Program-made: the position numbers and the translations under genes
Source: a virus
Reading direction: 5' to 3' (one strand)
Virus record (IMG/VR): IMGVR_UViG_3300021977_000001
DNA length: 64,000 nucleotides
The notes under the pieces: generated by a model
The model's database searches: none
What the model saw: only the letters and a program-made list of their open reading frames with translations
What the model was told of the DNA's origin: nothing
Shown here: in pieces, positions 539 through 62,920 of the stretch
Layout: every line of letters begins with the position of its first letter
Numbering within the stretch: the first letter of the stretch is position 1

Positions 539-569
539 ACGGCATAAAGCAGGGCATTAATGCCCTGCT
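539..569 (-). terminator. hairpin + TTATGCCG
   Basis: Palindrome agcagggcattaatgccctgct 548-569 followed on minus strand by TTATGCCGT. Confidence 0.7.
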
Positions 570-988
570 AAATAGCGTTGATATTCCGTATCAGATACCC
601 GTCTAACGGATGGGTCGTTAAGCTCCATTAACACAACGCGATAAACTAAAAGCGTATCTTCCTGCATGATGTCGCTGTTATGTCCGTAACGTAACCAGTC
701 TGGGGTAGAACGTTCTATATCATCCATCGATATTTTATTATGCGTTACTACCTCTTCTGATATCATTTCACCTAATGGCGTATTTCTCCATATGACTTCG
801 GTAAACAAACCAGGCAGGTTAAAGGTTTCATCGTTAGGGGTCCAATCTAAACAGACCCCGTAAAGACGACTATAGTTCACTTCTCTATGGCTACGACGTA
901 CGAGGAAGGTAAACAACGTGGTGATGTAGAATAGACGTTTCATCATATCCGGCATGAAGCGTTTGCATAATGCGGTGGATACTGACAT
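557..988 (-). CDS. hypothetical protein
   Basis: 143-aa ORF between RNase H and UvsX, co-oriented; stop codon lies in the loop of a hairpin. Confidence 0.6.
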   Translation of the reverse strand: MSVSTALCKRFMPDMMKRLFYITTLFTFLVRRSHREVNYSRLYGVCLDWTPNDETFNLPGLFTEVIWRNTPLGEMISEEVVTHNKISMDDIERSTPDWLRYGHNSDIMQEDTLLVYRVVLMELNDPSVRRVSDTEYQRYLAGH

Positions 989-1001
989 ACGTCACCTCCT
1001 A

Positions 1002-2360
1002 TTAGATAATCCGAGTATTAGCATAACCGCAGGCCCATATTCCGATGTCGTCCTCAGTTTCCAAGACAAACCCATAATTAAATGAGGTCTTAGACGATGG
1101 CCACGTTAATATACTAATGCGTTTGATGACTTTAGATAAAGCAGCTAAGGCGTTACGTGATGGAATATCTACACCAAAGGTAAGCGTGATCTCTGTAAAG
1201 CCTGTAGTTAACCCCACGCCGTGTTCAGCATCTAACTTAATAGATTTAATTCCAGTAGGAAGTTCTTTGCTAAACTCGTAAACTTCACGTTCGTTTTTAC
1301 CCTTGCCCTTTGTTACTTTATTATAGAATTTATCAGTAACGTCAGTTAAACGCCAGTTGTCAGGAAGATCGTTATTAATAACGTGTTTTAAACGTTCTTC
1401 TAGATTCCCTAAGACATCTAAAAGGTAGAAACTTCTACCGACGGGTCGCACTTCGCTAGTTAGCTGTTGTTTATCAAAGGTAAGAATATCTCGCGTTCTA
1501 GGTTTGCGAGAAGTGTGTATAGTGCCGTTGTTGTATAACTCAGGATAATTCCTTGATGAGAAGATATCGGTTAAATGACCAGTAAACATCATTTGCTCAC
1601 CTTCTTCAACGTAGCGGTTCTGGTGATCTCTTAACGACTCTAGTACTTTATCGGGTTCTTTCAAATATAAGATGCTATGTCCGGCATCTGATTCTGGTTT
1701 ACCTATGATATCGTGATTACCACAATAATAGATATGGTGGCCGGTCTCACTCTCGTTATTTACGTTGGTATTGAAATACCAATAGTTGTGACAGAATAGA
1801 CGGTTATAGGCGGGGGCTTTAACTTTACCGTATTTCTTAGCTTCAGTGGCTTCGTGAAATGAAACATGGTGTCCGTTAGTAGATAACATAACGCCCTTTG
1901 TTGCATTCTTATCAGCGGCCTCGTTGCCTTTGATATCAGCGTGTCCCTTTATCCACTTAAACGTTACCTGATTACCTTTACCAGTAAACTCAGCACGTGC
2001 ATTAGCTAAGGACTCCCAATAGCTTCTATTTTTAACAGGCTCACCATCATGCCTTAACCAGTTATTCGCTTCCCACTTCTCATAACGGTCATTGATACCG
2101 TCGATCACATAACGTGAATCTGACAAGATAAGTAAGTCTTCAACGTTATATTGATCAGCTACCTCAATCGCTTCTTTAACGGCTACCATTTCTGCTACGT
2201 TGTTAGTAGTAAGCTCTTCAATACTACCCCATCCATCGTATACGTAATCGCCAATCTGACCGTGGTAGCCCCATCCTGCGAATCCTTTACCACTGCTGTG
2301 ATTTCTGCAGCCACCGTCAGTATACAACGTGGCTTTTATGCTAGGTGTTTCATTACTCAT
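1002..2360 (-). CDS. rnhA: ribonuclease HI with C-terminal extension (phiKZ-type)
   Basis: LYTDGGC, TNNVAEMVAV, SDSRYVIDGI, WIKGHADIKGNEAADKNA = RNase HI D-E-D-D motifs. Confidence 0.92.
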   Translation of the reverse strand: MSNETPSIKATLYTDGGCRNHSSGKGFAGWGYHGQIGDYVYDGWGSIEELTTNNVAEMVAVKEAIEVADQYNVEDLLILSDSRYVIDGINDRYEKWEANNWLRHDGEPVKNRSYWESLANARAEFTGKGNQVTFKWIKGHADIKGNEAADKNATKGVMLSTNGHHVSFHEATEAKKYGKVKAPAYNRLFCHNYWYFNTNVNNESETGHHIYYCGNHDIIGKPESDAGHSILYLKEPDKVLESLRDHQNRYVEEGEQMMFTGHLTDIFSSRNYPELYNNGTIHTSRKPRTRDILTFDKQQLTSEVRPVGRSFYLLDVLGNLEERLKHVINNDLPDNWRLTDVTDKFYNKVTKGKGKNEREVYEFSKELPTGIKSIKLDAEHGVGLTTGFTEITLTFGVDIPSRNALAALSKVIKRISILTWPSSKTSFNYGFVLETEDDIGIWACGYANTRII

Positions 2361-2423
2361 TGGTCATGTTCCATAAATATTTTAATGCAGGTCTCTATAA
2401 TTATTATTATTACCTGTAAAGCC

Positions 2424-2888
2424 CTACTGTGTTTTACATTGTTGGTTAAAACGCTCTACATCTTCAAGGTAGATGCTTCTTAATTTAGACGCATAATCAT
2501 ACAGCGCAGCAGTATATTCACCAAATGCTTGAAAGGCTTCATCTTCATTTGCGTAGCTAGATAAATCGACCGAATCGGGTAACGGTTTTAAGTTAGGCGT
2601 GGGAAACGGTATAAACCGCCTACACGCATCCACAACGGGTTCTTCTATCCGGTCTTCCAGTTGGTTAATGTATAACGATAAACGTTCATGATAGCGCTTG
2701 AGGGCGTCTAAATAACGCTTAGCGGGATGATCTTGATCAATATCGTTATAATCCCAAATAAACATATCCATAGTTGGAGGTGGACCTATCTGGTCTACAG
2801 GTTTATTATCTTGAGGTTGTTCGTCAGGAACAACGCTTACACAACTTCCTAACAGTAATGTAGCGATAAGTAGCAGTGGACGTAACAT
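2424..2888 (-). CDS. lipoprotein, o-spanin-like
   Basis: Signal MLRPLLLIATLLLGS-C (lipobox), Pro-rich linker, two further Cys; TAATG overlap with upstream TM/coiled-coil gene. Confidence 0.6.
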   Translation of the reverse strand: MLRPLLLIATLLLGSCVSVVPDEQPQDNKPVDQIGPPPTMDMFIWDYNDIDQDHPAKRYLDALKRYHERLSLYINQLEDRIEEPVVDACRRFIPFPTPNLKPLPDSVDLSSYANEDEAFQAFGEYTAALYDYASKLRSIYLEDVERFNQQCKTQ

Positions 2889-3367
2889 TAGTTCTTCCCT
2901 ATTTTATTAAGCGCATCCAATATACTTCTACGATTAGTATCAGAAGGCGGGTTGTATTTTGGTGGTTCAGACGGTCGAGCTAAGCATTGATTTAACTCGC
3001 CTTGTAAATGCTTCAACTGAGCATTAAGTTGAATAACCTCACCTGCTTGGTCCTGCATGGTTTTTAACTGAGCAGGACTAGGTACACCGTCTCGCTTCAT
3101 TTGGTCGATTTCATCGTTTAATGCCGATACCTTTGCAGTAAGGGTTTTAATCTCTTTCTCTTTTGTTGCTAAATTGAGCTCTATACCCCTTGCATCGAAA
3201 TACAAAATACCTGTACCTATTAAGGAAGTTATAAGTAATAATAACAGTACCCTTCCTTTAGAGGGATCTTTATGTCCAGACATGTTAGCCTTCTCCCCCT
3301 TTAATAATGTGAGTAGAAACGGTAGAAATTGGGGCAGGGCTTTAAGAAAAGCAATGAATAGTGTCAA
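2888..3367 (-). CDS. membrane-anchored coiled-coil protein, i-spanin-like
   Basis: TM VLLLLLITSLIGTGILYF followed by two heptad-rich helices, one Cys and a Pro-rich hinge; TTG start with AGGGAG RBS. Confidence 0.55.
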   Translation of the reverse strand: MTLFIAFLKALPQFLPFLLTLLKGEKANMSGHKDPSKGRVLLLLLITSLIGTGILYFDARGIELNLATKEKEIKTLTAKVSALNDEIDQMKRDGVPSPAQLKTMQDQAGEVIQLNAQLKHLQGELNQCLARPSEPPKYNPPSDTNRRSILDALNKIGKN

Positions 3368-3422
3368 TGTATCGCTCCCTACCTGAGTTGAATATGATGA
3401 TTAATTTTGGAGTCAGTTTATA

Positions 3423-4739: not shown

Positions 4740-5343
4740 CGATAAAGGGATATTTACCTTAGCAAGTCCATTCCTTACGTTAACAGGGGTCGAGTATACG
4801 GTAACTAATATCTCGACCATTGATACAATGTTGGCACGTGGTGATGATGTTTTACAGGATGTATTTCTAGGCAATGGATTAACCGCCGATGATTACACTA
4901 GCGCCATTGCTAATAAAACACTTATTGTTACATTAACAAGTGCAGTCAATACAACCATCACCCTGCCTGCTAGCTACATTACAGGTACGCCTAATATCAA
5001 TACTGTACCATACGCCAGACGCATCTTGTCGGTAGATCTTGGAAGTCTACCTACTAACTATCCGTTAGACGGTCTTAAAGTAATATTAAAAGACACAGTA
5101 TTGGCAGCCGCAGGCGTTACAGCTACCCTTAATGAATACACCGCCTCTACTACTGGGGCAGTCAGTATGGATCAACATGTTGCTTTAGAAGATGAACGTA
5201 GTCGTTTGAAGACAACAGGGGAGACAGAAAGACAACGCCGTATAAAGGCGGAGCAAAACGCTGCAGCATATAAGGAAAGAATGCTGGCGTTAGAGAAGAT
5301 TGTTGTAGAACAGCAAAAACGCCTAGACGAGCAGGACGCATAA
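4717..5343 (+). CDS. putative virion protein
   Basis: Start reassigned to GTG 4717 (GAGGAG 7 nt upstream); C-terminal coiled coil. Confidence 0.55.
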   Translation: MTTLVKVNDKGIFTLASPFLTLTGVEYTVTNISTIDTMLARGDDVLQDVFLGNGLTADDYTSAIANKTLIVTLTSAVNTTITLPASYITGTPNINTVPYARRILSVDLGSLPTNYPLDGLKVILKDTVLAAAGVTATLNEYTASTTGAVSMDQHVALEDERSRLKTTGETERQRRIKAEQNAAAYKERMLALEKIVVEQQKRLDEQDA

Positions 5344-5385
5344 AGCCCTACCTCTACCCTTAACAGGTAGAGGTAGGTTATGCCG
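5338..5385. terminator. bidirectional hairpin, TTATGCCG (+) / TTATGCG (-)
   Basis: cctacctctacc/ggtagaggtagg stem between convergent genes. Confidence 0.75.
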
Positions 5386-6396
5386 TTAACCATCAGGTGC
5401 GTGTACGGTCTTACCATCGATTGGGCTAGATGCTTTAAGGTCTTTAAAGTCACCGCTCTTCCCTTTAATGGTACCTTCACCGGTTATTCCACCAGACACA
5501 TTCAATGCGCCACCTATCTTCACATTACCTGTAAATTCGGTATTAGGGGTAGTGAATTTAGTTGAAGGGTTATTAACGGTTAGGCTACCGCCCGACTTAA
5601 TAGAAATAGACCCTTTAACATCTACGGTTTCATTACCACCTACAGACGTAGAGTAGTTGCCACCGATGTCAAAAGCAACGTGGCGACCCACCGTCATCTT
5701 AACATCGCGATCTACAGTAAATGTCATGTCTTGTGGGGCATAGGCGTTGATGTCTTTCTGATTAAGCTCAAAGAACGTCGTCTCTTTGTTGTGAGCTTTG
5801 ATGTGCGTATTTTCACTATCTAGGAATATATAGTTATCCACATTATCAGTCAGTGTGAATTTACCTACCTTAGTATCTAATAAGAACTGGTAGGCAAAGG
5901 GTTCGCCATTATTCATATTAGTGACTAACTCGATCTTCTGATCATGGGTAGATATGGTTAAGCGATAACTGTTTTCATCAGTCATTGCTTCTACATCAGT
6001 TGTAGGGTCAGGGACATTTGACCAACGATATACCACCGTCTCTAAACGACGCAATACATCATCACGACCCATGCTAGTATAAAAGTATTTATCAGTATCC
6101 GCATATTGCCAAATAAGTACCTGTTCGCCTCTCATGAGGTCTGGAGGCGTTTCTCGGTTAGTTTCTAAACTTAACCACGTCGCTTTCAAGGTCTTATCAA
6201 TATCCACTTGAGCGGACCACTCACCCCCGAATCCATCTAGACCTTTACTATAAAAGGTTTTCTCATCCTGTTTAATTTCACCTAATTGAAAGGGAAGGAT
6301 CTCTATAGGCGTAATTAAGACTTCAGGATTATCGCGTTCTTTATTCTCGGCTACAATGCCGATCGATATAACGCGTAAACGTGTTTGTAATGTCAT
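5386..6396 (-). CDS. baseplate central spike / puncturing protein (T4 gp5 / phiKZ gp164-like)
   Basis: N-terminal OB-like region and C-terminal Val/Gly-rich beta-strand repeats (TVGRHVAFDIGGNYSTSVGGNETVDVKGSISIKSGG). Confidence 0.7.
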   Translation of the reverse strand: MTLQTRLRVISIGIVAENKERDNPEVLITPIEILPFQLGEIKQDEKTFYSKGLDGFGGEWSAQVDIDKTLKATWLSLETNRETPPDLMRGEQVLIWQYADTDKYFYTSMGRDDVLRRLETVVYRWSNVPDPTTDVEAMTDENSYRLTISTHDQKIELVTNMNNGEPFAYQFLLDTKVGKFTLTDNVDNYIFLDSENTHIKAHNKETTFFELNQKDINAYAPQDMTFTVDRDVKMTVGRHVAFDIGGNYSTSVGGNETVDVKGSISIKSGGSLTVNNPSTKFTTPNTEFTGNVKIGGALNVSGGITGEGTIKGKSGDFKDLKASSPIDGKTVHAPDG

Positions 6397-7051: not shown

Positions 7052-9485
7052 ATTTGCATTAAGCGAGATACCTTATATCTGTATCGATTTCTCAACACCC
7101 ATGCAGTTGATACTAGGGACTAATGGGTCAGGTAAATCTAGCCTGTTAAGTGAGCTGACACCATTACCTGCGAATCCTCAGGATTTTGAAAAGGGCGGCT
7201 TTAAAGAGCTACATGTTAACTTTAAAGGTGATGAGTTTATTATTCGCTCAGACATTAGCCGTGGTGCTAAACATTCATTTATTAAAAACGGTACTGAACT
7301 TAACCCAGGTGGAACGGCCTTAGTTCAAAAGGACATGGTAGAAAGAGAGCTAGGGTATACCACAGCGTTGCACACAGTGCTAACTGGCAAGATGCGATTT
7401 ACCCAAATGGCTCCTGCTAAGCGACGAGAGTGGATAGCTAAACTAAGTACCACTGACATGAGTTACGCCCATGCTATATTTGATGCCGTTAAAGTAGCAG
7501 CACGTGATAATCAAGGTGCGCTTAAACACGTTAAAGAGAAAGTCTCTCAACAACAAGCAAGATTAGTGTCGTTAGAAGCTGCTTCAAATTTACAAGACCG
7601 TGTCGATGAGTGCCATAAGGACATAGAGGCACTGTTAACAGACAGACAGTCTAATACCCCTACACCTCAGGATATTAAGCAGCAAATTCAATCTCGTCGA
7701 GATAACGTACTTAAACTATCTAAGCGGTTATTAACTACGGATTTAAGCCCATGGATAAAGACAGGCTTTACTACCGTCTTTGATTTTGAAGAAGCGATTG
7801 TTAAACTGCAGTTAAAAGAAGCAGAACTTAAAGCTAAGCGCGATAACTATACTGAGACACTTCACGATCTTCAGACTATGCTAACGCAGATGGATAGACT
7901 AGGTGCAGTAAGTTTAGATGATCTGTTAAAAAAGCGAGCAGAGTTAGAAGAACGTCAGACGCTTATCGCGTTTAGCGGTGAATGGGACATTCCCAAACAA
8001 GACGCTGAGGCGCTCTACAGGGACGTTACATCAGCATTTGTACCTTTGCGTGACTGGGCGGTAGAAATGCCGACACAGATGAAACCAGAGTACAATAAGG
8101 CGGCTTATCAAGAAGCAGTAGAGTATGTTAAGGGGTTAGAGCGAGAAACGTTAAGTTTAAAACGCAAGCTGGAAAGCCTTCAGCATCGCATTCAACACAT
8201 GAAGCAAGCCAGAGAATTAGAATGTCCTAAATGTAACTACATATGGCGTCCTGGTGTGTCTGAAAATGAACTTAAGGAATCCCTAGTACAGCAAGAAACA
8301 ATCTCTAATTTAATTGATAGTAAGGACAGAGAGTATAAAGGGTATGTTGAGAAACTAGAAGCCTATCAGCAGTACGTTAGAAATCTTAATCGCCTACAGG
8401 CTATCATGGAAAGCTATCCTAGATGCAGTGCGTTGTGGGAGCGTGTTAAACGCGATAAATACTACGACACATCACCTCTACAAATCATGCACACTTATGA
8501 TACGTTTAAAGACTACGTCATGATGTTAAAAGACCAGCAAGCGTTGGATGATGAAATAGCGCTTATTGATGCGTCTATTAAGAAATGTCATGAAAGTAAG
8601 GGGTTAGATGGCTTAGAGGTGGAAAAGCGCGTAGAGGAGCTTGAGCGACGTTTAGATGATGTTATTAAAGCAATATCTAAGACAAGCGATGAGATAGCTC
8701 GATTGCAGGCAGGTAAAGGTGAGTTTGATCGTTACTTTAAAGACACAGGTGTAGTAAGTGATGCTTTGGTAGATTTAGAATCTCTACGTGACCAGCTTAT
8801 TGAATCTCAACGACAATCAGTTATCGGTTCGGTATTGCAAGAAAGACAACAAACGTTATCGGTATTGTCATCTACGCTTAATCAGAAAGTTACATTAGAG
8901 CAGATGATTGCAGAACTTCGTGAATCTCAAGCTCAATTGGAAACAGAAACACAAGGATGGCAAGACCTACAGCACATGTTATCTCCGGCAACCGGTATCA
9001 TTGCAGATCAAATGACAGGGTTTATTAAATGTCTATTAGATCAGATGAATACTATCATTGCTAAAGTTTGGCATCATCGTCTAGTCGTACTACCTTGCGC
9101 TAACCAATCAGGCACATTAGACTATAAGTTTCCGTTTGTAGTAGGTGAAGATGATAAGCGTGTGGGTGATGTAGGACTAGGTAGCGAAGGTCAGATGGAG
9201 ATGATAGACTTTGCTTTTATGGTAACAGTAATGCACTTCATGGATCTACATGAATACCCAATGCTCTTAGATGAGACAGGTCGTACATTCGACGCTGTTC
9301 ACCGCAATCGTTTAATGGGGTATATTAAACTTCTGGTAGAGACTGGCCAAGCATCTCAACTATTCCTAGTTAACCACTTCGCTAGCTTTAGTGGTGGGTT
9401 TACTAATGCAGAGTTTTGCGTATTAGATGATCAAAACGTATCACTACCCTCAACCTATAACGAACACGTTAGCTTTACAGCATAA
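7014..9485 (+). CDS. sbcC: SbcC/Rad50-like SMC ATPase
   Basis: Walker A GTNGSGKS, long coiled coils, CPKC zinc hook, signature variant LGSEGQ, Walker B MLLDE, H-loop VNH. Confidence 0.92.
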   Translation: MKIQKLILSQYSRFALSEIPYICIDFSTPMQLILGTNGSGKSSLLSELTPLPANPQDFEKGGFKELHVNFKGDEFIIRSDISRGAKHSFIKNGTELNPGGTALVQKDMVERELGYTTALHTVLTGKMRFTQMAPAKRREWIAKLSTTDMSYAHAIFDAVKVAARDNQGALKHVKEKVSQQQARLVSLEAASNLQDRVDECHKDIEALLTDRQSNTPTPQDIKQQIQSRRDNVLKLSKRLLTTDLSPWIKTGFTTVFDFEEAIVKLQLKEAELKAKRDNYTETLHDLQTMLTQMDRLGAVSLDDLLKKRAELEERQTLIAFSGEWDIPKQDAEALYRDVTSAFVPLRDWAVEMPTQMKPEYNKAAYQEAVEYVKGLERETLSLKRKLESLQHRIQHMKQARELECPKCNYIWRPGVSENELKESLVQQETISNLIDSKDREYKGYVEKLEAYQQYVRNLNRLQAIMESYPRCSALWERVKRDKYYDTSPLQIMHTYDTFKDYVMMLKDQQALDDEIALIDASIKKCHESKGLDGLEVEKRVEELERRLDDVIKAISKTSDEIARLQAGKGEFDRYFKDTGVVSDALVDLESLRDQLIESQRQSVIGSVLQERQQTLSVLSSTLNQKVTLEQMIAELRESQAQLETETQGWQDLQHMLSPATGIIADQMTGFIKCLLDQMNTIIAKVWHHRLVVLPCANQSGTLDYKFPFVVGEDDKRVGDVGLGSEGQMEMIDFAFMVTVMHFMDLHEYPMLLDETGRTFDAVHRNRLMGYIKLLVETGQASQLFLVNHFASFSGGFTNAEFCVLDDQNVSLPSTYNEHVSFTA

Positions 9486-9530
9486 GAACCTAACCACCCG
9501 GCCTGATGGCTAGGTGGTTAGTTTATGCCG
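9479..9530. terminator. bidirectional hairpin, TTATGCCG (+) / TTATGCTG (-)
   Basis: ctaaccacc...ggtggttag stem between convergent genes. Confidence 0.75.
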
Positions 9531-10730
9531 TTATAACAGGCTATAGAACCGTTTAAGTGTTGGTGGTCTTCTGTTTCTACGGGAAGTAGGGAAACGAGTA
9601 GGCGCAACGGCGATAGGAAGATCCATCAAGGTATCAAGCATTAATGTTTTCTCTTCTTTGACGCGTGCAGAGACGAGATAATCATCCTTGCTTCCTATTA
9701 GCGTATATTCAGCAATCAAACCCTCGTTGTCAAATAAAATACCTTGAGGGATAGACGCGCTGCGATACTTTCCAGGTAATCCTGTTTCTTGTAGACGTTC
9801 TTCATCCGTGCAAACATTATCATGATCGATTGTAATAACAAAGCTAAACGGATGCGTCATGTAGCGTCTAATAAACGAATTAGAGTGAATGTCTTTAACC
9901 TGGATGTTGCCGATTGGGTTAATCAAATCATCTAACTGAATATCTTCACGCGATAATAATACACGACGGATAAGCGGGTAGGTCTTAAGGTTAACTTTAA
10001 TAGTGTTATCACCGATGACCTGGTAGGTGTCATCTAAGGCGATTAGATAACCACCGATACACAACATCACTGTTTTATTACTTAAATCTACGTCAGGTAG
10101 ATTGATAAGAAACTGCTCGTGAGCAGGGATGCGTATATCGGTAAGGATGTTTTCATCCTTTAGCCCGTAGGTGTTAATCTCACCTAGCTGAGAGAAGTTC
10201 AACAATCCGATATGGTTACCGTCAGTTCGCTCTAAGGTCTCTCCTGCACGCAACACATAAAGACGTTGGCTAGTGGCGCTAGTGCGGTGAAGGTAGCCGT
10301 TGACAGTAAACAGACTATGTTTAGCAAGCTGTACATAGTCCATATCGTCATGTTCCAATAACGCGTCAGGACCCTGCTTGCCTATAGTAGGGTTAGTGAC
10401 GTGCTTAGTATGGTCAGAGCGAGTTACGGTAAATTCATGATCAAACACATCCGCATAGAAGGCGTTGATAGGGTGGTCTATATCAGGTACGTCAGGTAAC
10501 CAAGGTAACGTAGAGGTGATGTTAGAGAAGTAATCAGCCACTAAGGTATTGGAGTAACGTAATGTCTTATCCATGTCGTTAAGCAACAGTGCCTTTTCTT
10601 CACCCGCAGCGACTATAATAAAAAGCACATGCTTATAGTCTTGGAACAATGTTTTAAATGAAAGTTGGGAAACATCTACCGTTTCCCATTGTCTATTTTG
10701 TTGTACAAAGGCACGTGATAAGGTATACAC
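9531..10730 (-). CDS. phiKZ-like virion structural protein
   Basis: 399-aa ORF divergent from the tail cluster; GGAG RBS and TATGAT upstream; call by context. Confidence 0.5.
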   Translation of the reverse strand: MYTLSRAFVQQNRQWETVDVSQLSFKTLFQDYKHVLFIIVAAGEEKALLLNDMDKTLRYSNTLVADYFSNITSTLPWLPDVPDIDHPINAFYADVFDHEFTVTRSDHTKHVTNPTIGKQGPDALLEHDDMDYVQLAKHSLFTVNGYLHRTSATSQRLYVLRAGETLERTDGNHIGLLNFSQLGEINTYGLKDENILTDIRIPAHEQFLINLPDVDLSNKTVMLCIGGYLIALDDTYQVIGDNTIKVNLKTYPLIRRVLLSREDIQLDDLINPIGNIQVKDIHSNSFIRRYMTHPFSFVITIDHDNVCTDEERLQETGLPGKYRSASIPQGILFDNEGLIAEYTLIGSKDDYLVSARVKEEKTLMLDTLMDLPIAVAPTRFPTSRRNRRPPTLKRFYSLL

Positions 10731-12610: not shown

Positions 12611-12630
12611 TCACTGATCATAAACACATC

Positions 12631-12664
12631 GATGGGTAGGGTAAATCCCTACCCATCTATGCAA
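12631..12664 (+). terminator. hairpin + CTATGCA
   Basis: gatgggtaggg/ccctacccatc 11-bp stem. Confidence 0.65.
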
Positions 12665-12683
12665 TCTCACTAAGGAGCGGGTT

Positions 12684-25956: not shown

Positions 25957-26017
25957 ATTCTGATCAATTGATGAATCTTAGATTAGATTGATTCTGATCA
26001 AAAAAGAAACATAGCTA

Positions 26018-26059
26018 AAGATCCCTCTCCTGTAATGGGAGAGGGATCTTCTATGCCGT
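26018..26059. terminator. bidirectional hairpin + CTATGCCG (+)
   Basis: 13-bp stem aagatccctctcc/ggagagggatctt between convergent genes. Confidence 0.75.
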
Positions 26060-28794: not shown

Positions 28795-28830
28795 AAGAAG
28801 ATCTAGCAATAGGTCTTCTTTTATGCCGTC
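28795..28830 (+). terminator. hairpin + TTATGCCGTC
   Basis: aagaagatcta-gcaa-taggtcttctt. Confidence 0.7.
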
Positions 28831-28886
28831 GGGGTAGGTAATTAATCGTATGTATTGTTGTATTTGTTATTCAAAAGGACGTTAAC

Positions 28887-29748: not shown

Positions 29749-29785
29749 GGTAGAGGTAGCAACGCGCTACCTCTACCCCTATGCC
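29749..29785. terminator. hairpin + CTATGCC (+)
   Basis: ggtagaggtagc/gctacctctacc between convergent genes. Confidence 0.75.
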
Positions 29786-32774: not shown

Positions 32775-32823
32775 ACATCATAACCTGTTTTTAAACTTGT
32801 TCATAAAATGAACACAATACATA

Positions 32824-36430: not shown

Positions 36431-36474
36431 GTTTATATACCTCTATAGGGTTTCTCAACGCTGTTAGAGTTAAC

Positions 36475-36504
36475 ACGGCATAGAGGTCAGGGTTACCCCT
36501 GACC
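36475..36504 (-). terminator. hairpin + CTATGCCGT
   Basis: ggtcaggg-ttac-ccctgacc; upstream stop codon in loop. Confidence 0.7.
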
Positions 36505-40735: not shown

Positions 40736-43393
40736 ATGGCAATAGAACATATTCGTAAACATGCCCATCCCCGCCACGATGCCGATCAAGGCATGACGCC
40801 AGAGATTAAGGCAATTGTTGATAAGATCGTCCAGCCAGGACAAGGCGACGGTCAGATACCCTCTAAGACTAAAGCACCATCGCTTAACGTCATGGAGACT
40901 ATCTCTAATAACATCGCCACCAATGTCAATGACGCTAGGGCTATTTTTGAAATACTGCCTGATACAGAAATGGCCATGCAGGTGTTGGTGTCTTCTATTC
41001 TATCGCCTAAAGACATGATCTCTACGGAAATAACATTTACCTCAGGGATTGCTGGCGAGGCAGCAGAAGTGGCATCAGGTGTCATAAGAATTATCCAAAA
41101 CTATTTCATCAAGGAATTTGGTTTACGTCGACGCCTCACTACAATATTGCAGGACGCGTTATTTAAGACAGGTAGTTACCCTATTGCTATCATTCCTGAA
41201 AATGGATTAGATGCACTGATTAATGGTAACGACACCGTGTCGTCAGAAAGCGTTAAAGAGTTCTTTGTCCCGTCTTCTAACAGCGTTAAACCTGTAGGGT
41301 TATTAGGTAACCCGGGTGCAGATAAGCAGGTAAGTTTAGAAAACCTATTCTCAGAACCCACCACGCCAGATAGCTATAAGAAGTTCAATGCGTATACGGA
41401 AGTTACTGATAACTTCAATGCTCTTAAAGTGCCTAGTTTATTATCTAAAGCACGTCAGCATGCTGTGGCGTCTGCATTTGAACGTCAGGGTGTAGCTGGG
41501 GTACATATCAGTAATGAGGCAGCAAGGGATAGTGAGGGTGGTGAGCGTGCGACGGTACTTAAAACAGCGTATCGCCGCCGCGTCTATACTCAGCGCTCTG
41601 CTGTACAACTTCAGACCAGTGAAACGCTTAACCGTGAATCGGTAGGTCATCCGCTAATAATGAAGTTACCTAGTGAGGCGGTCATTCCCGTTCACGTACC
41701 GTCAGACCCTTCTAACCACATCGGTTATTATGTTCTATTAGATAAGAATGGTAACCCTATTACGCGGGCTAAGGATGCTAAATATTTCACCAACCTTAAA
41801 CAACGGGTGAAAAAAGAGAATGAAGGAACCTCTGAGCTCATCGAGCAGGTTAGACAAGGCATGTACGGTAACCGTAATACGGTTGCTGAAGCGTCTGAAA
41901 ATGAGATCATTAACGCCTATACGTCGTTAATAGAAAACGATCTTGTAGCACGTCTAGAAGCCGGTATCTATAACGATAACGCAACGCTATCGTGTCCGGA
42001 AGAAGTAGGACGTATCATGCTTGCGCGTGCTTTATCTAAAATGCATACGCAGGTGTTGTTTGTACCCGCTGAATTAATGACGTATGTGGCGTTTGATTAC
42101 AACGATAACGGTACGGGTCGATCGCTAATTGAAGGGTCTAAGATCATTGCGTCGTTACGTGCTATGACGATGTTTGCTAATACCATGGCAGGTATTAAGA
42201 ACTCTAATAGCCGGACTAAGCTTAACATTACCCTAGATGAAGATGATCCTGATCCAGCGAATACCGTTGAAAAGATCATGCATAACTTCACTAAGAACCA
42301 TCAGTTGTCTTATCCGCTAGGCACCATTGACCCATCGGACATTACAGGTTACCTGCAACGTTCTTCGGTCGATATCAACGTAGAGGGTCACCCTGCGTAT
42401 CCAAGTACAAAGACCAACATTGAAGATGGTCAACGTAGTGTTATTAATGTCGATACTGACTTAGAAGAAACATTACGTAACCGTCACTTCATGTCGATGC
42501 ATATTGCGCCTGAGATTGTAGATTCTACATTGGATGTTGAATTTGCTACTAATGTGGTAGGGTCTAACTTACTATTAGCTAAGCGCGTGATCATCTATCA
42601 AGATACGCTATGTGATCACCTATCTGACTTTATTCGTAAGTTTACTAATAACTCATCAGTGCTGATGGCTCAGATATCAAAACTTATTGATGAATCGGGT
42701 ATCAGTAAGAAACTTAAACAAGGCAATAAAGATGTAACAGACGATGGGACGTTTGATACGAAAGAATCATTAATCACGGAGATCATTGATTCAATTACCA
42801 TTAGTCTGCCAACCCCTGATACGGCTAAATTAGCAAATCAAGGGGCGTCTTTTGAAGAGTTTAATAGTTTACTTGAAGCAGCGCTACCTGCCTATGTTGA
42901 CTCTGAGATGTTTGACGGTATGTTAGATTCAGATCTTGAAGAAGGTATAGAAGGTACTATAGCGGCATTGCGTGGCTACTTCCAGCGACAATGGTTACGT
43001 AAGAATAACATCATGCCTGAATTAGAAGGAATGGTGTCTGAAGGGTCTAATGAAAGCTTTGATATTGTCAATGTACATAAAGACCATGCCAAGGCTATCC
43101 TAGACCCCATGCAGAAACTATTACGGATGATGCGTAAGGAAGGACAAAAGGCACAAAGTAACTTGGATGCTGATCGTGATGAGATGACCAAGGCTTCTGA
43201 AGAGAAAGATCAAATGATCCAAACACTGCAAGAAGAACTTGAAGCATTAAAAGCTAAACTTGGAGGTAGTGAGGAAGCGGAGGAACCTGTAGATGACAAT
43301 ACAGACATCCCTGAAGACCTAGAAAATGAAGAAGAATCAGAAACACCACCTAGTGAGGAACCAGGTGCTGAGGACGATCTACCACCACTTTAA
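40736..43393 (+). CDS. portal protein (phiKZ gp129-like)
   Basis: 885 aa; LPDTEMAMQVLVSSILSPKD, LMKLPSEAVIPVH, acidic C-tail, S-x-E protease-type sites; synteny. Confidence 0.75.
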   Translation: MAIEHIRKHAHPRHDADQGMTPEIKAIVDKIVQPGQGDGQIPSKTKAPSLNVMETISNNIATNVNDARAIFEILPDTEMAMQVLVSSILSPKDMISTEITFTSGIAGEAAEVASGVIRIIQNYFIKEFGLRRRLTTILQDALFKTGSYPIAIIPENGLDALINGNDTVSSESVKEFFVPSSNSVKPVGLLGNPGADKQVSLENLFSEPTTPDSYKKFNAYTEVTDNFNALKVPSLLSKARQHAVASAFERQGVAGVHISNEAARDSEGGERATVLKTAYRRRVYTQRSAVQLQTSETLNRESVGHPLIMKLPSEAVIPVHVPSDPSNHIGYYVLLDKNGNPITRAKDAKYFTNLKQRVKKENEGTSELIEQVRQGMYGNRNTVAEASENEIINAYTSLIENDLVARLEAGIYNDNATLSCPEEVGRIMLARALSKMHTQVLFVPAELMTYVAFDYNDNGTGRSLIEGSKIIASLRAMTMFANTMAGIKNSNSRTKLNITLDEDDPDPANTVEKIMHNFTKNHQLSYPLGTIDPSDITGYLQRSSVDINVEGHPAYPSTKTNIEDGQRSVINVDTDLEETLRNRHFMSMHIAPEIVDSTLDVEFATNVVGSNLLLAKRVIIYQDTLCDHLSDFIRKFTNNSSVLMAQISKLIDESGISKKLKQGNKDVTDDGTFDTKESLITEIIDSITISLPTPDTAKLANQGASFEEFNSLLEAALPAYVDSEMFDGMLDSDLEEGIEGTIAALRGYFQRQWLRKNNIMPELEGMVSEGSNESFDIVNVHKDHAKAILDPMQKLLRMMRKEGQKAQSNLDADRDEMTKASEEKDQMIQTLQEELEALKAKLGGSEEAEEPVDDNTDIPEDLENEEESETPPSEEPGAEDDLPPL

Positions 43394-43438
43394 GGCATAA
43401 CTTGTAGGGTAGCTTAGACTACCCTACTTTATGCCGTC
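43394..43438. terminator. bidirectional hairpin, TTATGCCGTC (+) / TTATGCC (-)
   Basis: gtagggtag/ctaccctac between portal and convergent gene. Confidence 0.75.
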
Positions 43439-43658: not shown

Positions 43659-43690
43659 AATTAACGTTCCTTATTTTTATTATCGAAGAC

Positions 43691-43721
43691 AAAAAAAGGA
43701 GAGGGCAATAACCCCCTCTCC
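43691..43721 (-). terminator. canonical intrinsic terminator (U-tract)
   Basis: ggagaggg/ccctctcc stem followed by T7 on minus strand. Confidence 0.7.
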
Positions 43722-45895: not shown

Positions 45896-47512
45896 CTATG
45901 TGCGTGCAATCTTCGCCTGCACACTTTCTATCAGATCTGTGAAGCGCGGATCAGGAATCATCTCACCTTCAGGTGTTACGTTTAGATATGGATTAATCTG
46001 ACCGTGACCTGTTGGACAAGAACTTGGCTGATTCCCATAACTACATACTTCAGCCAACGAAGCGTGTAGTAGTCGTGATGGTTTAGTCTTCGTCCCGCTG
46101 CGAGAGCCAGTCGCATCAGTCTGAGGTACCACCTTGTTAGTCATCTTGAACATGAGATTATCACCGGCCGTAGAGAGAGAACTTACCTCACCATGTCCTG
46201 TGTTTATCTTACGTATAGTATCAAACTTCAGATACTTGTCCATAAGCTTTTCTATGTCCTTGACAGCTAGGGTTTTGTTTTTGTTAGAGTTTAACTTAAA
46301 GGTAAAATTAAATATTGCCTTTATCACATCTAGTAATATATATCTCAAGGTTGTTAGCTTCTTACCATACAGGTTAGATACATCCGTTGTGATGATAATT
46401 TCATTCATGGTTTCGATAATATAAGCAAATAAAGCATACGTGTCTTTACACTCTATCCCCTCACGTTCTAGGTTCATTTGAACCAGGCCATCAATGTAAT
46501 AATCTAGACTTACTAAATGCGCATCGATATCTTCTAACAGCCTACCTTCATTTACTTTACTCTTAAAGATAACATGCCCCATCAATACACGCCATAGACG
46601 CGTATCATCGATATACTCTGGGCGAATACGTTGAGTAAAATGATCTGCAAGGTAGAATAACGTGGCGAGTAAGTTGTCAGATAGCCTACTGCGCTGCTCA
46701 CGCTTACAGGCAACACGCAGCTGCGTAGGTTGATAACCCTTACCTTTAACGCTGATAGGTTGTAGATGTAAACTCTCTACAATAATCCAATCTGATTTAG
46801 GATGTGACTGCTCGGTGATGGTGTTACGATCACCTACTACAACATCCATACCGCAGAAGCGTTTGAAGGTTTCTGTCACGCCATACTTACAAAACAGATA
46901 ATGACCTAAGGTACTTACCATATTGAGACGTAGACCGCCCATGTAAATAATCTTAGAACCTTTATCTTTTTGACGCAGATGATAAATGGTACTCCATGGA
47001 ATACTTAGAGTTTCTTTAACACCATCAATGACTAGGTTGTGTGTGACCCGTTCAAAGGTAAGTTTGTCACGTGTTAATGCAACGAATAGTTTCCCATCGT
47101 CTACTGAGAATAGATTATCAACCATAACTGGATTAATAACATATTTAGAACCGTTCACGCGTATAACACCACCTGGTCCTACAAAAGGCAACTGCATAGA
47201 GCGCGGATAAAGCTTTTGACCATGGTAGCTAAAATTATACTGAAGCATGTAGAAGTCACTTGGCGCAAGATTGAACTCAGCGCGCGATGATCGCTTACGT
47301 GTCATGTAAGCATACTGCTGCTCCGGTGTTGCTCTTTTGTACTCTCCATCGTACGTAAATCCCTCTGGAAAGCTTCGTGCTGCACATTTCCACACATGGT
47401 CGATGTATTGCTCGACTTCACGCATCTGCTCTACTACTAACCCTTTCGCCAGTATAGGGTTAAACTTAGGCACATGTTGCTCGTGTATGTGTTTAAATAA
47501 ATATTGATCCAT
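45896..47512 (-). CDS. non-virion RNA polymerase beta-type subunit (phiKZ gp123-like)
   Basis: 538 aa; LPFVGPGG.I..NGSKY.I.PV, KKL...YIL.D, SRLLHAS..E, GQINP; located two genes from the major capsid gene as in phiKZ. Confidence 0.78.
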   Translation of the reverse strand: MDQYLFKHIHEQHVPKFNPILAKGLVVEQMREVEQYIDHVWKCAARSFPEGFTYDGEYKRATPEQQYAYMTRKRSSRAEFNLAPSDFYMLQYNFSYHGQKLYPRSMQLPFVGPGGVIRVNGSKYVINPVMVDNLFSVDDGKLFVALTRDKLTFERVTHNLVIDGVKETLSIPWSTIYHLRQKDKGSKIIYMGGLRLNMVSTLGHYLFCKYGVTETFKRFCGMDVVVGDRNTITEQSHPKSDWIIVESLHLQPISVKGKGYQPTQLRVACKREQRSRLSDNLLATLFYLADHFTQRIRPEYIDDTRLWRVLMGHVIFKSKVNEGRLLEDIDAHLVSLDYYIDGLVQMNLEREGIECKDTYALFAYIIETMNEIIITTDVSNLYGKKLTTLRYILLDVIKAIFNFTFKLNSNKNKTLAVKDIEKLMDKYLKFDTIRKINTGHGEVSSLSTAGDNLMFKMTNKVVPQTDATGSRSGTKTKPSRLLHASLAEVCSYGNQPSSCPTGHGQINPYLNVTPEGEMIPDPRFTDLIESVQAKIART

Positions 47513-48817: not shown

Positions 48818-48863
48818 GACGGCATAGACGGCATAACACCCAGGAACCTTAAGTCCCTGAGTG
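48818..48863 (-). terminator. hairpin + tandem TATGCCGTC x2
   Basis: Minus strand: cactcagggac-ttaag-gttcctgggtg then TTATGCCGTC-TATGCCGTC. Confidence 0.7.
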
Positions 48864-48974
48864 CTACTTAACCACGCTAAGTGATCTTTTAATCGGTAAT
48901 GAAACCGGCATTGTCTTTTTTTAAATTGTAAATACGCAAGCGCATTTTTAACCAGATTGTTAATGAATCAGGTC

Positions 48975-51850: not shown

Positions 51851-53413
51851 ATGGACTCAAAACTATTGCTCGTTAAGGCGATAATGTTACTGTATCGCGA
51901 AGGGCAACTAGAAGATAACAATGGTCAGTCTGGACCTATTATCAAAGAAGTAATTGAAGCACTTAAGCCAACCTTTAACAGTGCGGTATCAGGTTCCTCG
52001 AAAGATACACTAGTAGCATTACGTGACACGCTTCTATATATGCTAGAAGAACCACCTGGCTATAAACACGATAGAGACACCATCATTCAACGCTTACGTG
52101 TTAACATCATTGACGACGAGTCATTGTTTAAAGCCGTTGAATTAGGAATGATAGAATTAGAATCAGAAGAACGCATTCAGCAGGTCTGTTACGACCACGT
52201 CAGGACGTTACGTCAGTTCCTATCAAGAAACACCATTAAAAACATTATTAAACAAGCCTCTCAAGATGTTCACTTTAATGAAGAATCGGTAAATTGGAAG
52301 ACGTTTGCTGCGGATCTAGTAGATCAACTTGAGCCTTTTGCAAGTAACCTAGTCGAAAACGCGCAAGGGTTAGTGACCGAGTTAGATATTGATAACATTG
52401 AAGCCGTTGAAAAGGTAATGAAAGACGGTAATGAGTCTAACTCAACTGAAGGGATCATGAAGTTAGGTTGGCAGGGTGTTAATAGAATGACAGGTGACCA
52501 TGGCGGTATACGACGTGGTGACTTTGTACTAATAGGTGCACTTCAGCATAACTTTAAATCAGGGATGCTACTTAACATCCCTAAACACGTAGCGTTGTAT
52601 AATCGCCCATACATGCTAGACCCTAAAAAGAAACCGTTAATTATCTATATCTCTTTAGAAAACAAGATTGAAGATAACATCTTGATCATGTACAAGAACC
52701 TTAAAGAGAATGAAACCGGTGAAGCATGCGATGTAAGTAACATCAACATACAAGAAGCAGCGGCTTATCTTCGTGAAGTCTTAGGTAAGAATGGTTACCA
52801 CTTTAAGTTCTTACGTTTTGACCCGACTGAATTTACTTATCGTGATCTGTTTGAATTACTTGACCGTTACCAAGCTGAAGGTTACGAGATCCATATGGTA
52901 TCGGTGGATTACCTTAACATGATGAGTAAGCAAGGATGTAACTCAGGTATTAACGAAGCACACCGCATACGTGAGTTGTTTAGACGTGTTCGTAACTACT
53001 GTAACCCTAAAGGCATCACGCTGTTAACCGCGCACCAGTTAAGTTCAGATGCTAAGCAACTAGTACGGATGGGAAGTTCTGACTTTGTTAAAGAGGTAGC
53101 TAACAAAGGCTATTACGACTCATCTAAAGGTATCGACCAAGAGGTGGACTTAGAGATTACCATACACATCGAAAAACCAGGTGACGGCCATAGCTATCTC
53201 ACCATGATGCGAGGCAAGCATCGTAAGTCAGGTAAAATTACCCCTGATAAAGACTTATTCTGCGTATATCGCTTTGAACCTATCGGCGATATACCTGACG
53301 ACGTACATGGAAGTGATTTGTCAAGAAGAAGCGTTGGTGGTGGTGTCAATAGTCAACCAGGCGCTGCTGAAGGTGCGTGGTGGGACATGCCAAAAGGTGA
53401 CCATGCCGCATAA
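51851..53413 (+). CDS. dnaB: DnaB-like replicative helicase (phiKZ gp118-like)
   Basis: GWQGVNRM.G..GG.RRG, Walker A variant GALQHNFKS, YISLEN, VDYLNMM, TAHQLS, RGKHR. Confidence 0.85.
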   Translation: MDSKLLLVKAIMLLYREGQLEDNNGQSGPIIKEVIEALKPTFNSAVSGSSKDTLVALRDTLLYMLEEPPGYKHDRDTIIQRLRVNIIDDESLFKAVELGMIELESEERIQQVCYDHVRTLRQFLSRNTIKNIIKQASQDVHFNEESVNWKTFAADLVDQLEPFASNLVENAQGLVTELDIDNIEAVEKVMKDGNESNSTEGIMKLGWQGVNRMTGDHGGIRRGDFVLIGALQHNFKSGMLLNIPKHVALYNRPYMLDPKKKPLIIYISLENKIEDNILIMYKNLKENETGEACDVSNINIQEAAAYLREVLGKNGYHFKFLRFDPTEFTYRDLFELLDRYQAEGYEIHMVSVDYLNMMSKQGCNSGINEAHRIRELFRRVRNYCNPKGITLLTAHQLSSDAKQLVRMGSSDFVKEVANKGYYDSSKGIDQEVDLEITIHIEKPGDGHSYLTMMRGKHRKSGKITPDKDLFCVYRFEPIGDIPDDVHGSDLSRRSVGGGVNSQPGAAEGAWWDMPKGDHAA

Positions 53414-53460
53414 AAGCCTAACCACCTAGCCGTGAGGCCGGGTGGTTAGCTTATGCCGTC
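53406..53460. terminator. bidirectional hairpin, TTATGCCGTC (+) / TTATGCGG (-)
   Basis: ctaaccacc...ggtggttag between DnaB and HDOD; 30/32 identical to the reverse complement of 9490-9521. Confidence 0.75.
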
Positions 53461-56878: not shown

Positions 56879-56881
56879 GGG

Positions 56882-59417: not shown

Positions 59418-59432
59418 TATAATGTTGTCGAA

Positions 59433-59462
59433 ACGGCATAAAGTGGGCAGGTTGCCCTGCCC
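59433..59462 (-). terminator. hairpin + TTATGCCGT
   Basis: gggcagg-ttgc-cctgccc after dcd. Confidence 0.72.
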
Positions 59463-60578: not shown

Positions 60579-60614
60579 GACGGCATAAGGGATGCAAGGT
60601 TACCCCCACATCCC
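60579..60614 (-). terminator. hairpin + TTATGCCGTC
   Basis: gggatg...catccc interrupted stem. Confidence 0.65.
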
Positions 60615-61725: not shown

Positions 61726-62213
61726 TACATGTCTCCCATATCGTTAAAATAGTCACGTAGCTCCATCAACAACTTGCCTAAATGGTTTTCTCCTTTCCCA
61801 TCTCGATTAGATACACCCCAATACTTATCTCCATGCCAGTTACCTTCAACCAATGCCGCGTTACCCGTTGCTATTAACTTACGTTTAAGGTCTAAGTTGA
61901 GGTTAAATTTAAGCAGCAATATTTCCCACATCAGCGGTAGTTTAATAGCGTCCCAATCATCTCGCAGCTTAAGCTTCCTACCATGTATTTTAGCCTGGCC
62001 TGGATAAGGTAGGGTGGTGATAAAGGCCCGTTCTTTTACATCAGTGGTTTTAGCCGCCACGTAGGCGTGCTCGGCAGTGCTAAAGCTATACGTCTGAAGC
62101 TGTTTGCCTGGAAATACCGCAGTATAAGGAATAGGGTTAGTTAGTGGATAGAAGTTACTTAAAAACGCATAGTCGTCTTTAAATCTATCTATTCTATTCT
62201 CCTGAAATAACAT
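61725..62213 (-). CDS. NADAR (YbiA-like) protein
   Basis: FLSNFYP, AEHAYVAAK, AKIHGRK..LR.DW, KF..N..L...L..TG...LVEGN..D.YWG...G.N.LG.LLMELR. Confidence 0.9.
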   Translation of the reverse strand: MLFQENRIDRFKDDYAFLSNFYPLTNPIPYTAVFPGKQLQTYSFSTAEHAYVAAKTTDVKERAFITTLPYPGQAKIHGRKLKLRDDWDAIKLPLMWEILLLKFNLNLDLKRKLIATGNAALVEGNWHGDKYWGVSNRDGKGENHLGKLLMELRDYFNDMGDM

Positions 62214-62223
62214 AGCAATATCC

Positions 62224-62661
62224 TTATTTAAATATTACATTCGGCAGAGGTCTGGCTGCTAGGCGCGTGGTCTCATCGATAATGAATTTATCATTAGGCT
62301 TTCCGCGATTAACGCTATCGTTATAACGTATCACGTGAAGGCTACGTCGCATGCGATAGGCGCGCCTAAGCGCAGGATTGAACACGTCATTGTTCCATTC
62401 CAGATACGTAGTATTGGTTCCTTCTAATTCACGCATATCCACCACCACAGGTGTGAGTTTATAATACAGTCTCTGTAGTAGCAATGTGATAATGTAGACG
62501 ATTAATAAACTTAAAATAAACATTCCCATGTAAAAGGCAATTCTCTTTATTATAATTAGGTTATAGTATTTAAACAGGGTGTTAAATGCGACGTTGATGA
62601 CAAAAAAGAAACAATAATCAAAGAGCAGCGCTAACCGCATGCTTGATCTTGTTTCTCTCAT
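62224..62661 (-). CDS. membrane protein
   Basis: Two hydrophobic N-terminal segments. Confidence 0.5.
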   Translation of the reverse strand: MRETRSSMRLALLFDYCFFFVINVAFNTLFKYYNLIIIKRIAFYMGMFILSLLIVYIITLLLQRLYYKLTPVVVDMRELEGTNTTYLEWNNDVFNPALRRAYRMRRSLHVIRYNDSVNRGKPNDKFIIDETTRLAARPLPNVIFK

Positions 62662-62663
62662 TA

Positions 62664-62873
62664 TTATTCACTGGCCGTTATACTCTCTGCAATGGTTGAG
62701 AACAATACCCCCGCTTTACGTTTTGCTTGAATATTGTATTTGAACGTATCGCCTTTAATAGATAGTTCAGCAGTGTAGTCATAATGACCTGCCTCTATTA
62801 AATCAGCAAGGCTGCGTAACCGAGCAACAACGTCAAGCTCATCGTCGGTTACATTAATGGTTGAATCGGTCAT
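62664..62873 (-). CDS. hypothetical protein
   Basis: 69 aa with GGGTG RBS. Confidence 0.5.
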   Translation of the reverse strand: MTDSTINVTDDELDVVARLRSLADLIEAGHYDYTAELSIKGDTFKYNIQAKRKAGVLFSTIAESITASE

Positions 62874-62891
62874 ATTTGATCACCCTACTAA

Positions 62892-62920
62892 GGCATAAAG
62901 GGAGGACCGAAGCCCTCCCC
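62892..62920 (-). terminator. C(UUCG)G hairpin + TTATGCC
   Basis: Minus strand gggagggc-ttcg-gtcctccc then TTTATGCC, after endA. Confidence 0.72.

Follow-up and report, generated by a model that had tools for sequence, protein, structure and literature searches.

Transcription terminators built from a hairpin and a conserved tail have been mapped in two phages of the phiKZ type. In phiKZ itself, ONT-cappable-seq (ONT, Oxford Nanopore Technologies) identified 61 terminators sharing the motif BCCYCCCCHWWDGGGRRGGBYTTATKYYGT, that is, a stem-loop and a TTAT region (Putzeys et al. 2024, microLife, PMC10914365). In 201phi2-1, a “motif A” common to 59 terminators “strongly resembles” the phiKZ motif, and eight terminators of this phage, placed in uninfected P. 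chlororaphis, stopped read-through as well as or better than lambda T0 (PMC11512511). Here we analyze a 64,000-nucleotide (nt) stretch of viral DNA, IMG/VR record IMGVR_UViG_3300021977_000001 (“the window”), in which 16 intergenic GC-rich hairpins are each followed by a short box containing TATGC. An earlier note on this DNA had proposed the combination as a candidate gene-end signal of which it knew no description; it had in fact been mapped before, in both of these phages. Our analysis indicates that the elements are very probably phiKZ-type intrinsic transcription terminators, bidirectional between facing genes; judged by their sequence, they amount to a sound annotation of a known stop signal and to no new kind of element. 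The anatomy, statistics, placement and conservation are our own results, and the RNA 3' ends and termination activity come from the papers on relatives.

All 16 hairpins (named below by a position in the window) fold stably, at -13.8 to -26 kcal/mol in RNAfold, and each is followed by (T/C)TATGC, usually TATGCCGT(C), as the note had described. The exact 8-mer TATGCCGT is present at 13 of the 16 sites and twice at 48818, which makes 14 copies; the other three sites carry the variants TATGCAAT (12631), TATGCCTA (29749) and TATGCCTT (62892). Boxes on both strands were confirmed at 5347, 9490, 43394 and 53418, with the minus-strand copies TTATGCGTC, TTATGCTGT, TTATGCCTT and TTATGCGGC, respectively, as was the duplication at 48818, a true tandem (TATGCCGTCTATGCCGTC); at 26018 the second, minus-strand box is partial (GCTATGTTTC). 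The convergent arrangement at 43394 also stood, with the correction that the facing gene is a small open reading frame of 66 amino acids (aa), read by eye at ~43461-43658(-). At 5347, 9490 and 53418 it is the GCA TAA of the plus-strand gene (last Ala codon and stop) that builds the minus-strand box. Counted over both strands, there are 22 oriented boxes, with the position weight matrix Y-T-A-T-G-C(21)-C(17)-G(16)-T(18)-C/T-T(15), and 18 of them fit a TATKYYGT-like pattern within one mismatch (consensus YTATGCCGT). At all 16 sites the distance from the stem to the T of TATG is 0-6 nt.

To measure the association, every 40-nt segment was folded on both strands, which gave 36 hairpin 3' ends with a fold energy <= -18 kcal/mol. 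TATGC follows 16 of these 36 ends, against a positional background of 0.7% (binomial p ~1e-21). A motif-free search returned TATGC, ATGCC, TTATG, TGCCG and GCCGT as the top 5-mers 3' of strong hairpins, with 14 occurrences of TATGC in these flanks versus 0.43 expected. Against the 14 exact copies of TATGCCGT, 200 first-order Markov simulations gave 2.2 on average and at most 7; all 14 adjoin a hairpin, none in the window is hairpin-free, and one-mismatch copies elsewhere in the window occur at chance level. As a bare word, the 6-mer TATGCC is not enriched across the window (32 versus 33 expected), so the signal resides in its coupling to hairpins. The curated covariance models of Rfam gave no match at the gathering threshold anywhere in the window.

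The position of the boxes relative to genes was used to weigh a terminator against a promoter role. Read along the ending gene, the box always lies 3' of the stem, and the hairpins start ~0-60 nt from a same-strand stop codon at all sites but the post-capsid one. Every convergent junction (6 of 6) has a hairpin with at least one box; among their 12 gene ends, ten carry full or variant boxes and a single one a partial box. Boxes also occupy 10 of 21 co-directional gaps of at least 40 nt; at the six divergent junctions, where only promoters are expected, there is none. As the spacer to the stem is fixed at 0-6 nt and the distance to the next start codon varies from 24 to 99 nt, the box tracks the hairpin and not the next gene. 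Half of the boxes (11) point at a same-strand gene at that distance, and the other 11 point into the end of the facing gene. A promoter-only reading was rejected on the junction counts (convergent 6/6, divergent 0/6); the occurrence of TATG upstream of start codons (12 loci) is confounded, since the terminator boxes themselves lie upstream of co-directional genes. The view of the note that this is a gene-end signal in transcript orientation, and not primarily a promoter, is supported by this placement together with the 3' ends mapped in relatives. The boxes follow replication, nucleotide-metabolism and structural genes alike: PHROG annotation of the genes upstream of box and U-tract terminators showed no split by gene class, and no polymerase- or time-class specificity of boxes is visible in the window.

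A combined role is harder to set aside. In a stop-restart module, the hairpin would terminate and the TATG of the box, with G as +1, would serve as a late promoter at which the non-virion RNA polymerase (nvRNAP) re-initiates, with GCCGU as the initial transcript; we consider this improbable as the general explanation. In phiKZ, TATG with G at +1 is the late-promoter core and is necessary for nvRNAP initiation, and downstream sequence matters, with no conservation past TATG (PMC4666361). The box shares all four of these bases, which promoters likewise carry on the non-template strand, and the window encodes a polymerase of the same family. Eleven boxes lie 24-99 nt upstream of a same-strand start codon, and the TATGs at 12658 and 62897 (27 and 24 nt from the start) resemble the hairpin-free divergent TATGs at 3393 and 10833 (30 and 26 nt); at the 12631 site a dual late-promoter role is possible. 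The depletion of TATG inside genes on both strands, described below, also fits a live signal. Several observations count against re-initiation. Promoters in the 11 of 22 boxes at convergent junctions would drive antisense transcription into the 3' end of the opposing gene; divergent junctions have no box; and the exact box is never free of a hairpin. The phiKZ promoters have neither an upstream hairpin nor conservation past TATG, in contrast to the conserved CCGT of the window. Three boxes have a promoter-like element of its own conservation after them, and the RNA ends mapped at homologous sites are 3' ends. Stop-restart could be an added role at co-directional junctions, with the terminator role kept.

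The promoter-like element after those three boxes is TATATTAC or ACCTACATTAC, 12-25 nt downstream, so the box is not needed there as the promoter of the next gene. TATATTAC is found at 30877->30870, ~18 nt past the 30895 box, and at 59413->59406, downstream of the 59433 terminator; a conserved TTCAnACCTACATTAC element lies ~12 nt after the post-capsid tandem box, and this copy is kept in all relatives. More broadly, TAYATTAC occurs 50-60 nt upstream of four minus-strand starts (28113-28120, 30870-30877, 48792-48799, 59406-59413). Of its 11 copies, four fall in the non-coding 5% of the window, and the post-capsid copy is inside the TTCAnACCTACATTAC block. It is likely a phage promoter element resembling the TTAC-type motifs of phiKZ.

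The preferred reading, intrinsic termination, draws its direct support from the relatives. The eight transcription termination site (TTS) coordinates of 201phi2-1 printed in PMC11512511 were placed on the genome here, and all eight are inside the box (plus strand), at G to G+2 of TATGNN and 7-9 nt past the last paired base; five fall on the pyrimidine just before the conserved GT, with an ONT 3'-end resolution of ~+/-2 nt that limits finer placement. The phiKZ TTS at 270485 is 7 nt past its stem, in a TTATATTC variant, and the matching 5' end at 270595 is one base after a TATG, as expected of a late promoter. Mapping of RNA 3' ends to the motif was the check that the note had proposed for itself, and in relatives (eight sites in 201phi2-1, one in phiKZ) the ends are inside the box. 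All eight reporter-tested 201phi2-1 terminators carry the box or a close variant; as they are active in the uninfected host, bacterial RNA polymerase (RNAP) reads them without a phage factor or phage polymerase. The suggestion that a single phage RNAP reads the signal found no support, given this host activity and the lack of visible polymerase-class specificity in the window.

These data also bear on RNA processing, in which read-through transcripts would be cut or trimmed back to the hairpin and box and the structure would protect the end. ONT 3' ends cannot tell processed from terminated RNA, stable 3' hairpins protect mRNA, and the phage carries RNase H-like and ribonuclease genes. We nonetheless regard this as very unlikely: the cloned 201phi2-1 elements match lambda T0 in lowering the expression of a downstream reporter in uninfected cells, the 3' ends are fixed 7-9 nt past the stem in the geometry of intrinsic termination, and mirrored boxes at convergent junctions fit collision avoidance.

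As in phiKZ and 201phi2-1, a GC-rich stem-loop is followed directly by TTAT and KYYGT, at gene or transcription-unit ends and bidirectionally between convergent genes. The sequence TTATGCCGT is one instance of phiKZ TTATKYYGT, and the window consensus YTATGCCGT(C)T fits both the phiKZ motif and motif A. The window differs from phiKZ in its tighter tail (TATGCCGT, often with C, versus TTATKYYGT) and in its stems, which lack the CCYCCCC/GGGRRGG bias and belong to other families (CCTACC, CTAACCACC); the 3' ends of phiKZ are mapped, and the window elements are known from sequence. Like a bacterial intrinsic (Rho-independent) terminator, the element has a hairpin followed by a 7-9 nt segment that opens with weak U/A pairs; the 201phi2-1 members are factor-independent in the host reporter, and the phiKZ members were classed as intrinsic by ARNold. 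Unlike such a terminator, the window box has only 2-3 U, then A, U and GCCG, and its tail is conserved well beyond T-richness. The statement that the box stands in place of a U-tract was therefore half right: there is no U-tract itself (at least 5 T in 8), but the box opens with (U)UUAU and fills the 7-9 nt of the U-tract. A short sequence-specific signal that halts a phage polymerase is also known from T7 RNAP, whose class II pause/termination signal ATCTGTT is hairpin-independent, acts on a single-subunit polymerase and is unrelated to the box in sequence.

To see how widely the signal occurs, we scanned 42-50 kb stretches of related phages. TTATG, TATGC or TATGT is the top k-mer 3' of hairpins in phiKZ, 201phi2-1, Xoo-sp14, Burkholderia FLC9 and Serratia KpSz_1, whose GC content ranges from 38% to 59%; RSF1 shows the signal more weakly, and there are single clear cases in Goslar, EL and a Vibrio phage. 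Downstream of the capsid gene, a hairpin with a TATG-type box is present in 5 of 10 phages (the window phage, phiKZ, Xoo-sp14, FLC9, RSF1); the EL hairpin carries a TTATACCGT variant and that of SPN3US a U-tract; in the remaining three of the ten, the stem finder picked up no hairpin at this position.

The genes of the window support its placement in this family. They include a phiKZ-type major capsid gene at 49002-51164(-) (phrog_3231), a DnaB-like helicase, an SbcC-like protein and a homologue of phiKZ gp123, an nvRNAP beta subunit (phrog_2943), and the order around the capsid gene is that of phiKZ gp118-gp129, with syntenic helicase, gp119-, capsid, gp122-, gp123- and gp124-like genes. In a phage collection, the closest protein matches are to jumbo phages of Xanthomonas, Burkholderia, Erwinia and Pseudomonas (27-38% identity), the capsid protein has just 27-38% identity to any listed phage, and a near-identity DNA search found no match for the window. 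Metagenomic contigs in IMG/VR contain the same phage and relatives at 92-56% capsid identity. Taken together, these matches place the source among the nucleus-forming jumbo phages (Chimalliviridae), as a distant and uncultured member.

Three orthologous terminators were compared across these IMG/VR relatives. The box is kept and invariant, while stems drift, compensate or are replaced. Downstream of the capsid gene, relatives as distant as 56% capsid identity share the 17-nt tandem box TATGCCGTCTATGCCGT without a change, within an intergenic region averaging 65% identity; the stem of this terminator shows U-A versus U-G and C-G versus U-A changes and in the 56% relative has an entirely different sequence, which nevertheless folds. 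In the helicase-junction terminator (53418), the inner palindrome is inverted between the window phage and an 89% relative, and the 56% relative has a replaced stem with both boxes kept; both boxes of the site orthologous to 43394 are kept in all relatives examined. Pairing that is kept in a stem of changing sequence, next to a tail kept in sequence, is what a hairpin read as RNA and a tail read as sequence would be expected to show. Across phages of 25-35% protein identity and 38-59% GC, with hosts of several bacterial orders, the box is invariant and the stems turn over.

Some stems recur within the window. Identical 14-nt arms (CTAACCACCCGGCC / GGCTAGGTGGTTAG, with the same internal mismatch) are present at 9490-9521 and 53418-53449, in inverted orientation and 44 kb apart, and GGTAGAGGTAG is common to the hairpins 5347-5377, 29749-29777 and 24851-24875; the listing of hairpin sequence families also takes in 12631-12655. 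These families and the flipped palindrome suggest copying between sites or cruciform-type inversion. They would also suit a DNA-level element that is merely intergenic (a mobile mini-cassette, recombination hotspot, nick or endonuclease site), which is hardly credible, as the box is strictly 3' of the stem and oriented with the ending gene, orthologous stems change with pairing kept, pointing to a single-stranded nucleic acid fold, and RNA ends map at the element in relatives.

Under the terminator reading, a GC-rich RNA hairpin of variable sequence would be followed directly by the conserved tail (U)UUAUGCCGU. By homology with 201phi2-1 and phiKZ, transcription would run 7-9 nt past the stem, and the RNA would end within TATGYY, before the conserved GT. 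The box would occupy the hybrid position of the U-tract in a bacterial terminator, with UUAU presumably supplying the weak proximal RNA:DNA hybrid and GCC|G both a GC-rich duplex downstream and a pause context of pyrimidine(-1)/G(+1). The mirrored box between facing genes (GCATAA-stem-TTATGC) would make a two-way stop in 40-46 nt.

Table 1. Predicted terminators and the polymerase subunit gene in the window, with supporting sequence details.
Feature	Coordinates	Strand	Details
Terminator, site 539	539..569	-	hairpin 548-569; box TTATGCCGT (547->539); ends gene 557-988(-), stem overlapping its stop codon; next gene starts 72 nt downstream
Bidirectional terminator, convergent junction, site 5347	5335..5387	both	hairpin 5347-5377 (12 bp); plus box TTATGCCGT 5378-5386; minus box 5343->5335, overlapping GCA-TAA of gene 4684-5343(+)
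Bidirectional terminator, site 9490	9477..9532	both	hairpin 9490-9521; plus box TTATGCCGT; minus box overlaps GCA-TAA; between SbcC-like 7014-9485(+) and 9531-10730(-)
Terminator, weak box CTATGCAAT, site 12631	12627..12665	+	TATG 27 nt before ATG of gene 12684-13772
Terminator, convergent junction, site 26018	26008..26060	both	hairpin 26018-26050 (13 bp); plus box CTATGCCGT; minus box partial, GCTATGTTTC
Terminator, site 28795	28795..28831	+	hairpin 28795-28820; box TTATGCCGTC
Terminator, convergent junction, site 29749	29749..29788	+	hairpin 29749-29777; variant box CTATGCCTA; no box in minus-strand flank (TTGTCTATATTG)
Terminator, site 30895	30895..30926	-	hairpin 30904-30926; box TTATGCCGTC
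Terminator, site 32824	32823..32857	-	hairpin 32831-32857; box CTATGCCGTC overlaps stem base
Terminator, site 36475	36474..36504	-	hairpin 36485-36504; box CTATGCCGT
Bidirectional terminator, site 43394	43392..43438	both	hairpin 43404-43427; plus box TTATGCCGTC, minus box TTATGCCTT; between gp129-like virion gene 40736-43393(+) and the small basic-protein gene
Terminator after major capsid gene, site 48818	48818..48868	-	imperfect 13-15 bp hairpin 48836-48868; tandem box TATGCCGTCTATGCCGTC
Bidirectional terminator, site 53418	53405..53460	both	hairpin 53414-53452; plus box TTATGCCGTC; minus box TTATGCGGC, overlapping GCA-TAA; between DnaB-like helicase 51851-53413(+) and 53460-54290(-)
Terminator after dCTP-deaminase-like gene 59480-60097(-), site 59433	59432..59462	-	hairpin 59445-59462; box TTATGCCGT
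Terminator, site 60579	60579..60614	-	hairpin 60589-60614; box TTATGCCGTC
Terminator, site 62892	62889..62923	-	hairpin 62899-62920; variant box TTATGCCTT; TATG 24 nt before next ATG; CTATGT also in plus-strand flank
U-tract terminator after gp124-like gene	43690..43721	-	T7 then GTCTT; comparison class
Further U-tract terminator	24851-24882	+	
Further U-tract terminator	56851-56880	-	
Further U-tract terminator	57545-57577	-	
Further U-tract terminator	58490-58520	-	
phiKZ gp123 homologue, nvRNAP beta-like subunit	45896..47512	-	phrog_2943

How the TATG of the box might be read is a further question. In phiKZ, a pocket of gp123 beneath the beta lobe holds the non-template TATG, positions -3 to +1 (2026 structure, PMC12809450). 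The gp123 homologue in the window has the phiKZ residue at 8 of 16 listed pocket positions (S144, F151, R156, K158, K190, H331, S334, Q466), and its positions 185 and 406 stay aromatic. A search for co-variation between pocket residues and box usage, in an alignment of only ten phages, showed F151 and H331 unchanged throughout and S334 and Q466 almost unchanged, in box-rich and box-poor phages alike; SPN3US has the most substitutions. It is conceivable, though we think it unlikely, that the TATG is read during elongation by this promoter pocket, causing a sequence-specific pause 7-9 nt past the hairpin that takes the place of the U-tract. In that case, a single polymerase-DNA contact would serve both promoter and terminator, and it might allow the polymerase to stop and restart without release. 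The RNA ends of relatives at or just after the G of TATG would be compatible with such a pocket-held elongating polymerase. As a general rule, pocket reading is weakened by the ~2 nt uncertainty in the register of the 3' ends, by SPN3US, which keeps most of the pocket and avoids TATG in genes and has terminators without TATG, and by the host RNAP, which reads the 201phi2-1 elements.

Relative to synonymous-codon shuffles, TATG is depleted in the coding sequence of the window on both strands (observed/expected 0.76; other TAxx words >=0.95). Of 13 chimallivirus loci, 11 have ratios of 0.53-0.86, and the controls T4 and phage 14-1 both have 0.90. Since the depletion extends to SPN3US, it speaks for TATG as a live signal and not for a terminator role specifically; it suggests that TATG is a live signal for these phages and leaves the kind of signal unspecified. 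The most depleted 4-mers in window genes also include TTTT (0.47), AAAA and GGAG/GAGG besides TATG/CATA (0.76/0.73), and sigma-70-like promoter matches between 43 and 63 kb number 37, versus 48 in shuffles, which fits avoidance of stray signals and independence from host RNAP.

Several points weigh against the elements being phiKZ-type terminators. At the loci of SPN3US and Vibrio phage YongXC32, TTAT(T) or U-tracts stand in place of the box, so the polymerases of the family do not depend on it. Termination in this phage is an argument from homology, and neither the ONT 3' ends (~+/-2 nt) nor the fluorescence traps can tell termination from 3' processing. The phiKZ late-promoter core is TATG with G at +1, and eleven boxes precede a same-strand gene by 24-99 nt, so some of them may have a second role as promoters. 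Finally, activity with host RNAP leaves the exact conservation of GCCGT across phages of many hosts unexplained; something phage-encoded may read it.

In uncultured phiKZ-like phages, a hairpin with TATGCCGT marks the ends of transcription units, and terminator finders that require a U-tract miss all such sites: a scan for at least 5 T in 8 found no box site in the window and recovered only the U-tract class. The invariant box and the 3' ends at TATG(YY) raise the concrete question of whether the non-canonical RNAPs of this family stop via their promoter-recognition pocket, a question already visible from the phiKZ and 201phi2-1 data, to which the window adds breadth only.

The box also separates the bidirectional stops from a second class with ordinary U-tracts. 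The four members reported earlier (24851+, 43691-, 56851-, 57548-) were confirmed, and the T-run scan added a fifth at 58497-58520(-). Two members share T6-7 followed by GTCTT and an AT-rich stretch. The terminator after the gp124-like gene has kept its U-tract (T7-10 then GTCTT) in all relatives, including the one at 56% capsid identity, which makes terminator class a stable, site-specific property. Between this terminator and the box terminator at 43394 sits the 66-aa gene, absent from the gene list; its product is very basic with a K/R-rich C-terminus, it has its own Shine-Dalgarno sequence, and its position is conserved in relatives.

Other hairpins were seen outside the two classes. Those at 18383-18406 and 21299-21320 are strong (-18 to -19 kcal/mol) and lie between three tandem paralogous genes of ~950 aa (15494-24184), directly before the next Shine-Dalgarno sequence; their flanks are conserved (TAATTAAACT-[hairpin]-AACTT(T)GGAGTA), with neither box nor U-tract. 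The ~130 nt from the capsid stop to its terminator, 48870-49001(-), begin with a box-less hairpin directly after the stop, followed by a TTCATTAACAATCTGGTTAAAATGCG... stretch kept in relatives (the counterpart in contigs L017-L022 is at ~8161-8300), and may be a 3'-untranslated-region element or a small RNA. A 9-bp hairpin at 55522-55549 (-16.5 kcal/mol), at the overlap of genes 55536-56243(-) and 54293-55549(-), has the minus-strand 3' flank CTTATGACG, a box variant of the 201phi2-1 type. The site is conserved in contig L017, which is identical here, and might act as an internal attenuator. Lastly, a gene for a 533-aa HNH endonuclease (phrog_374) at 26060-27661(-), alone on the minus strand beside a tail-fibre-like cluster and with a box terminator at its boundary, may have been inserted as a homing endonuclease.

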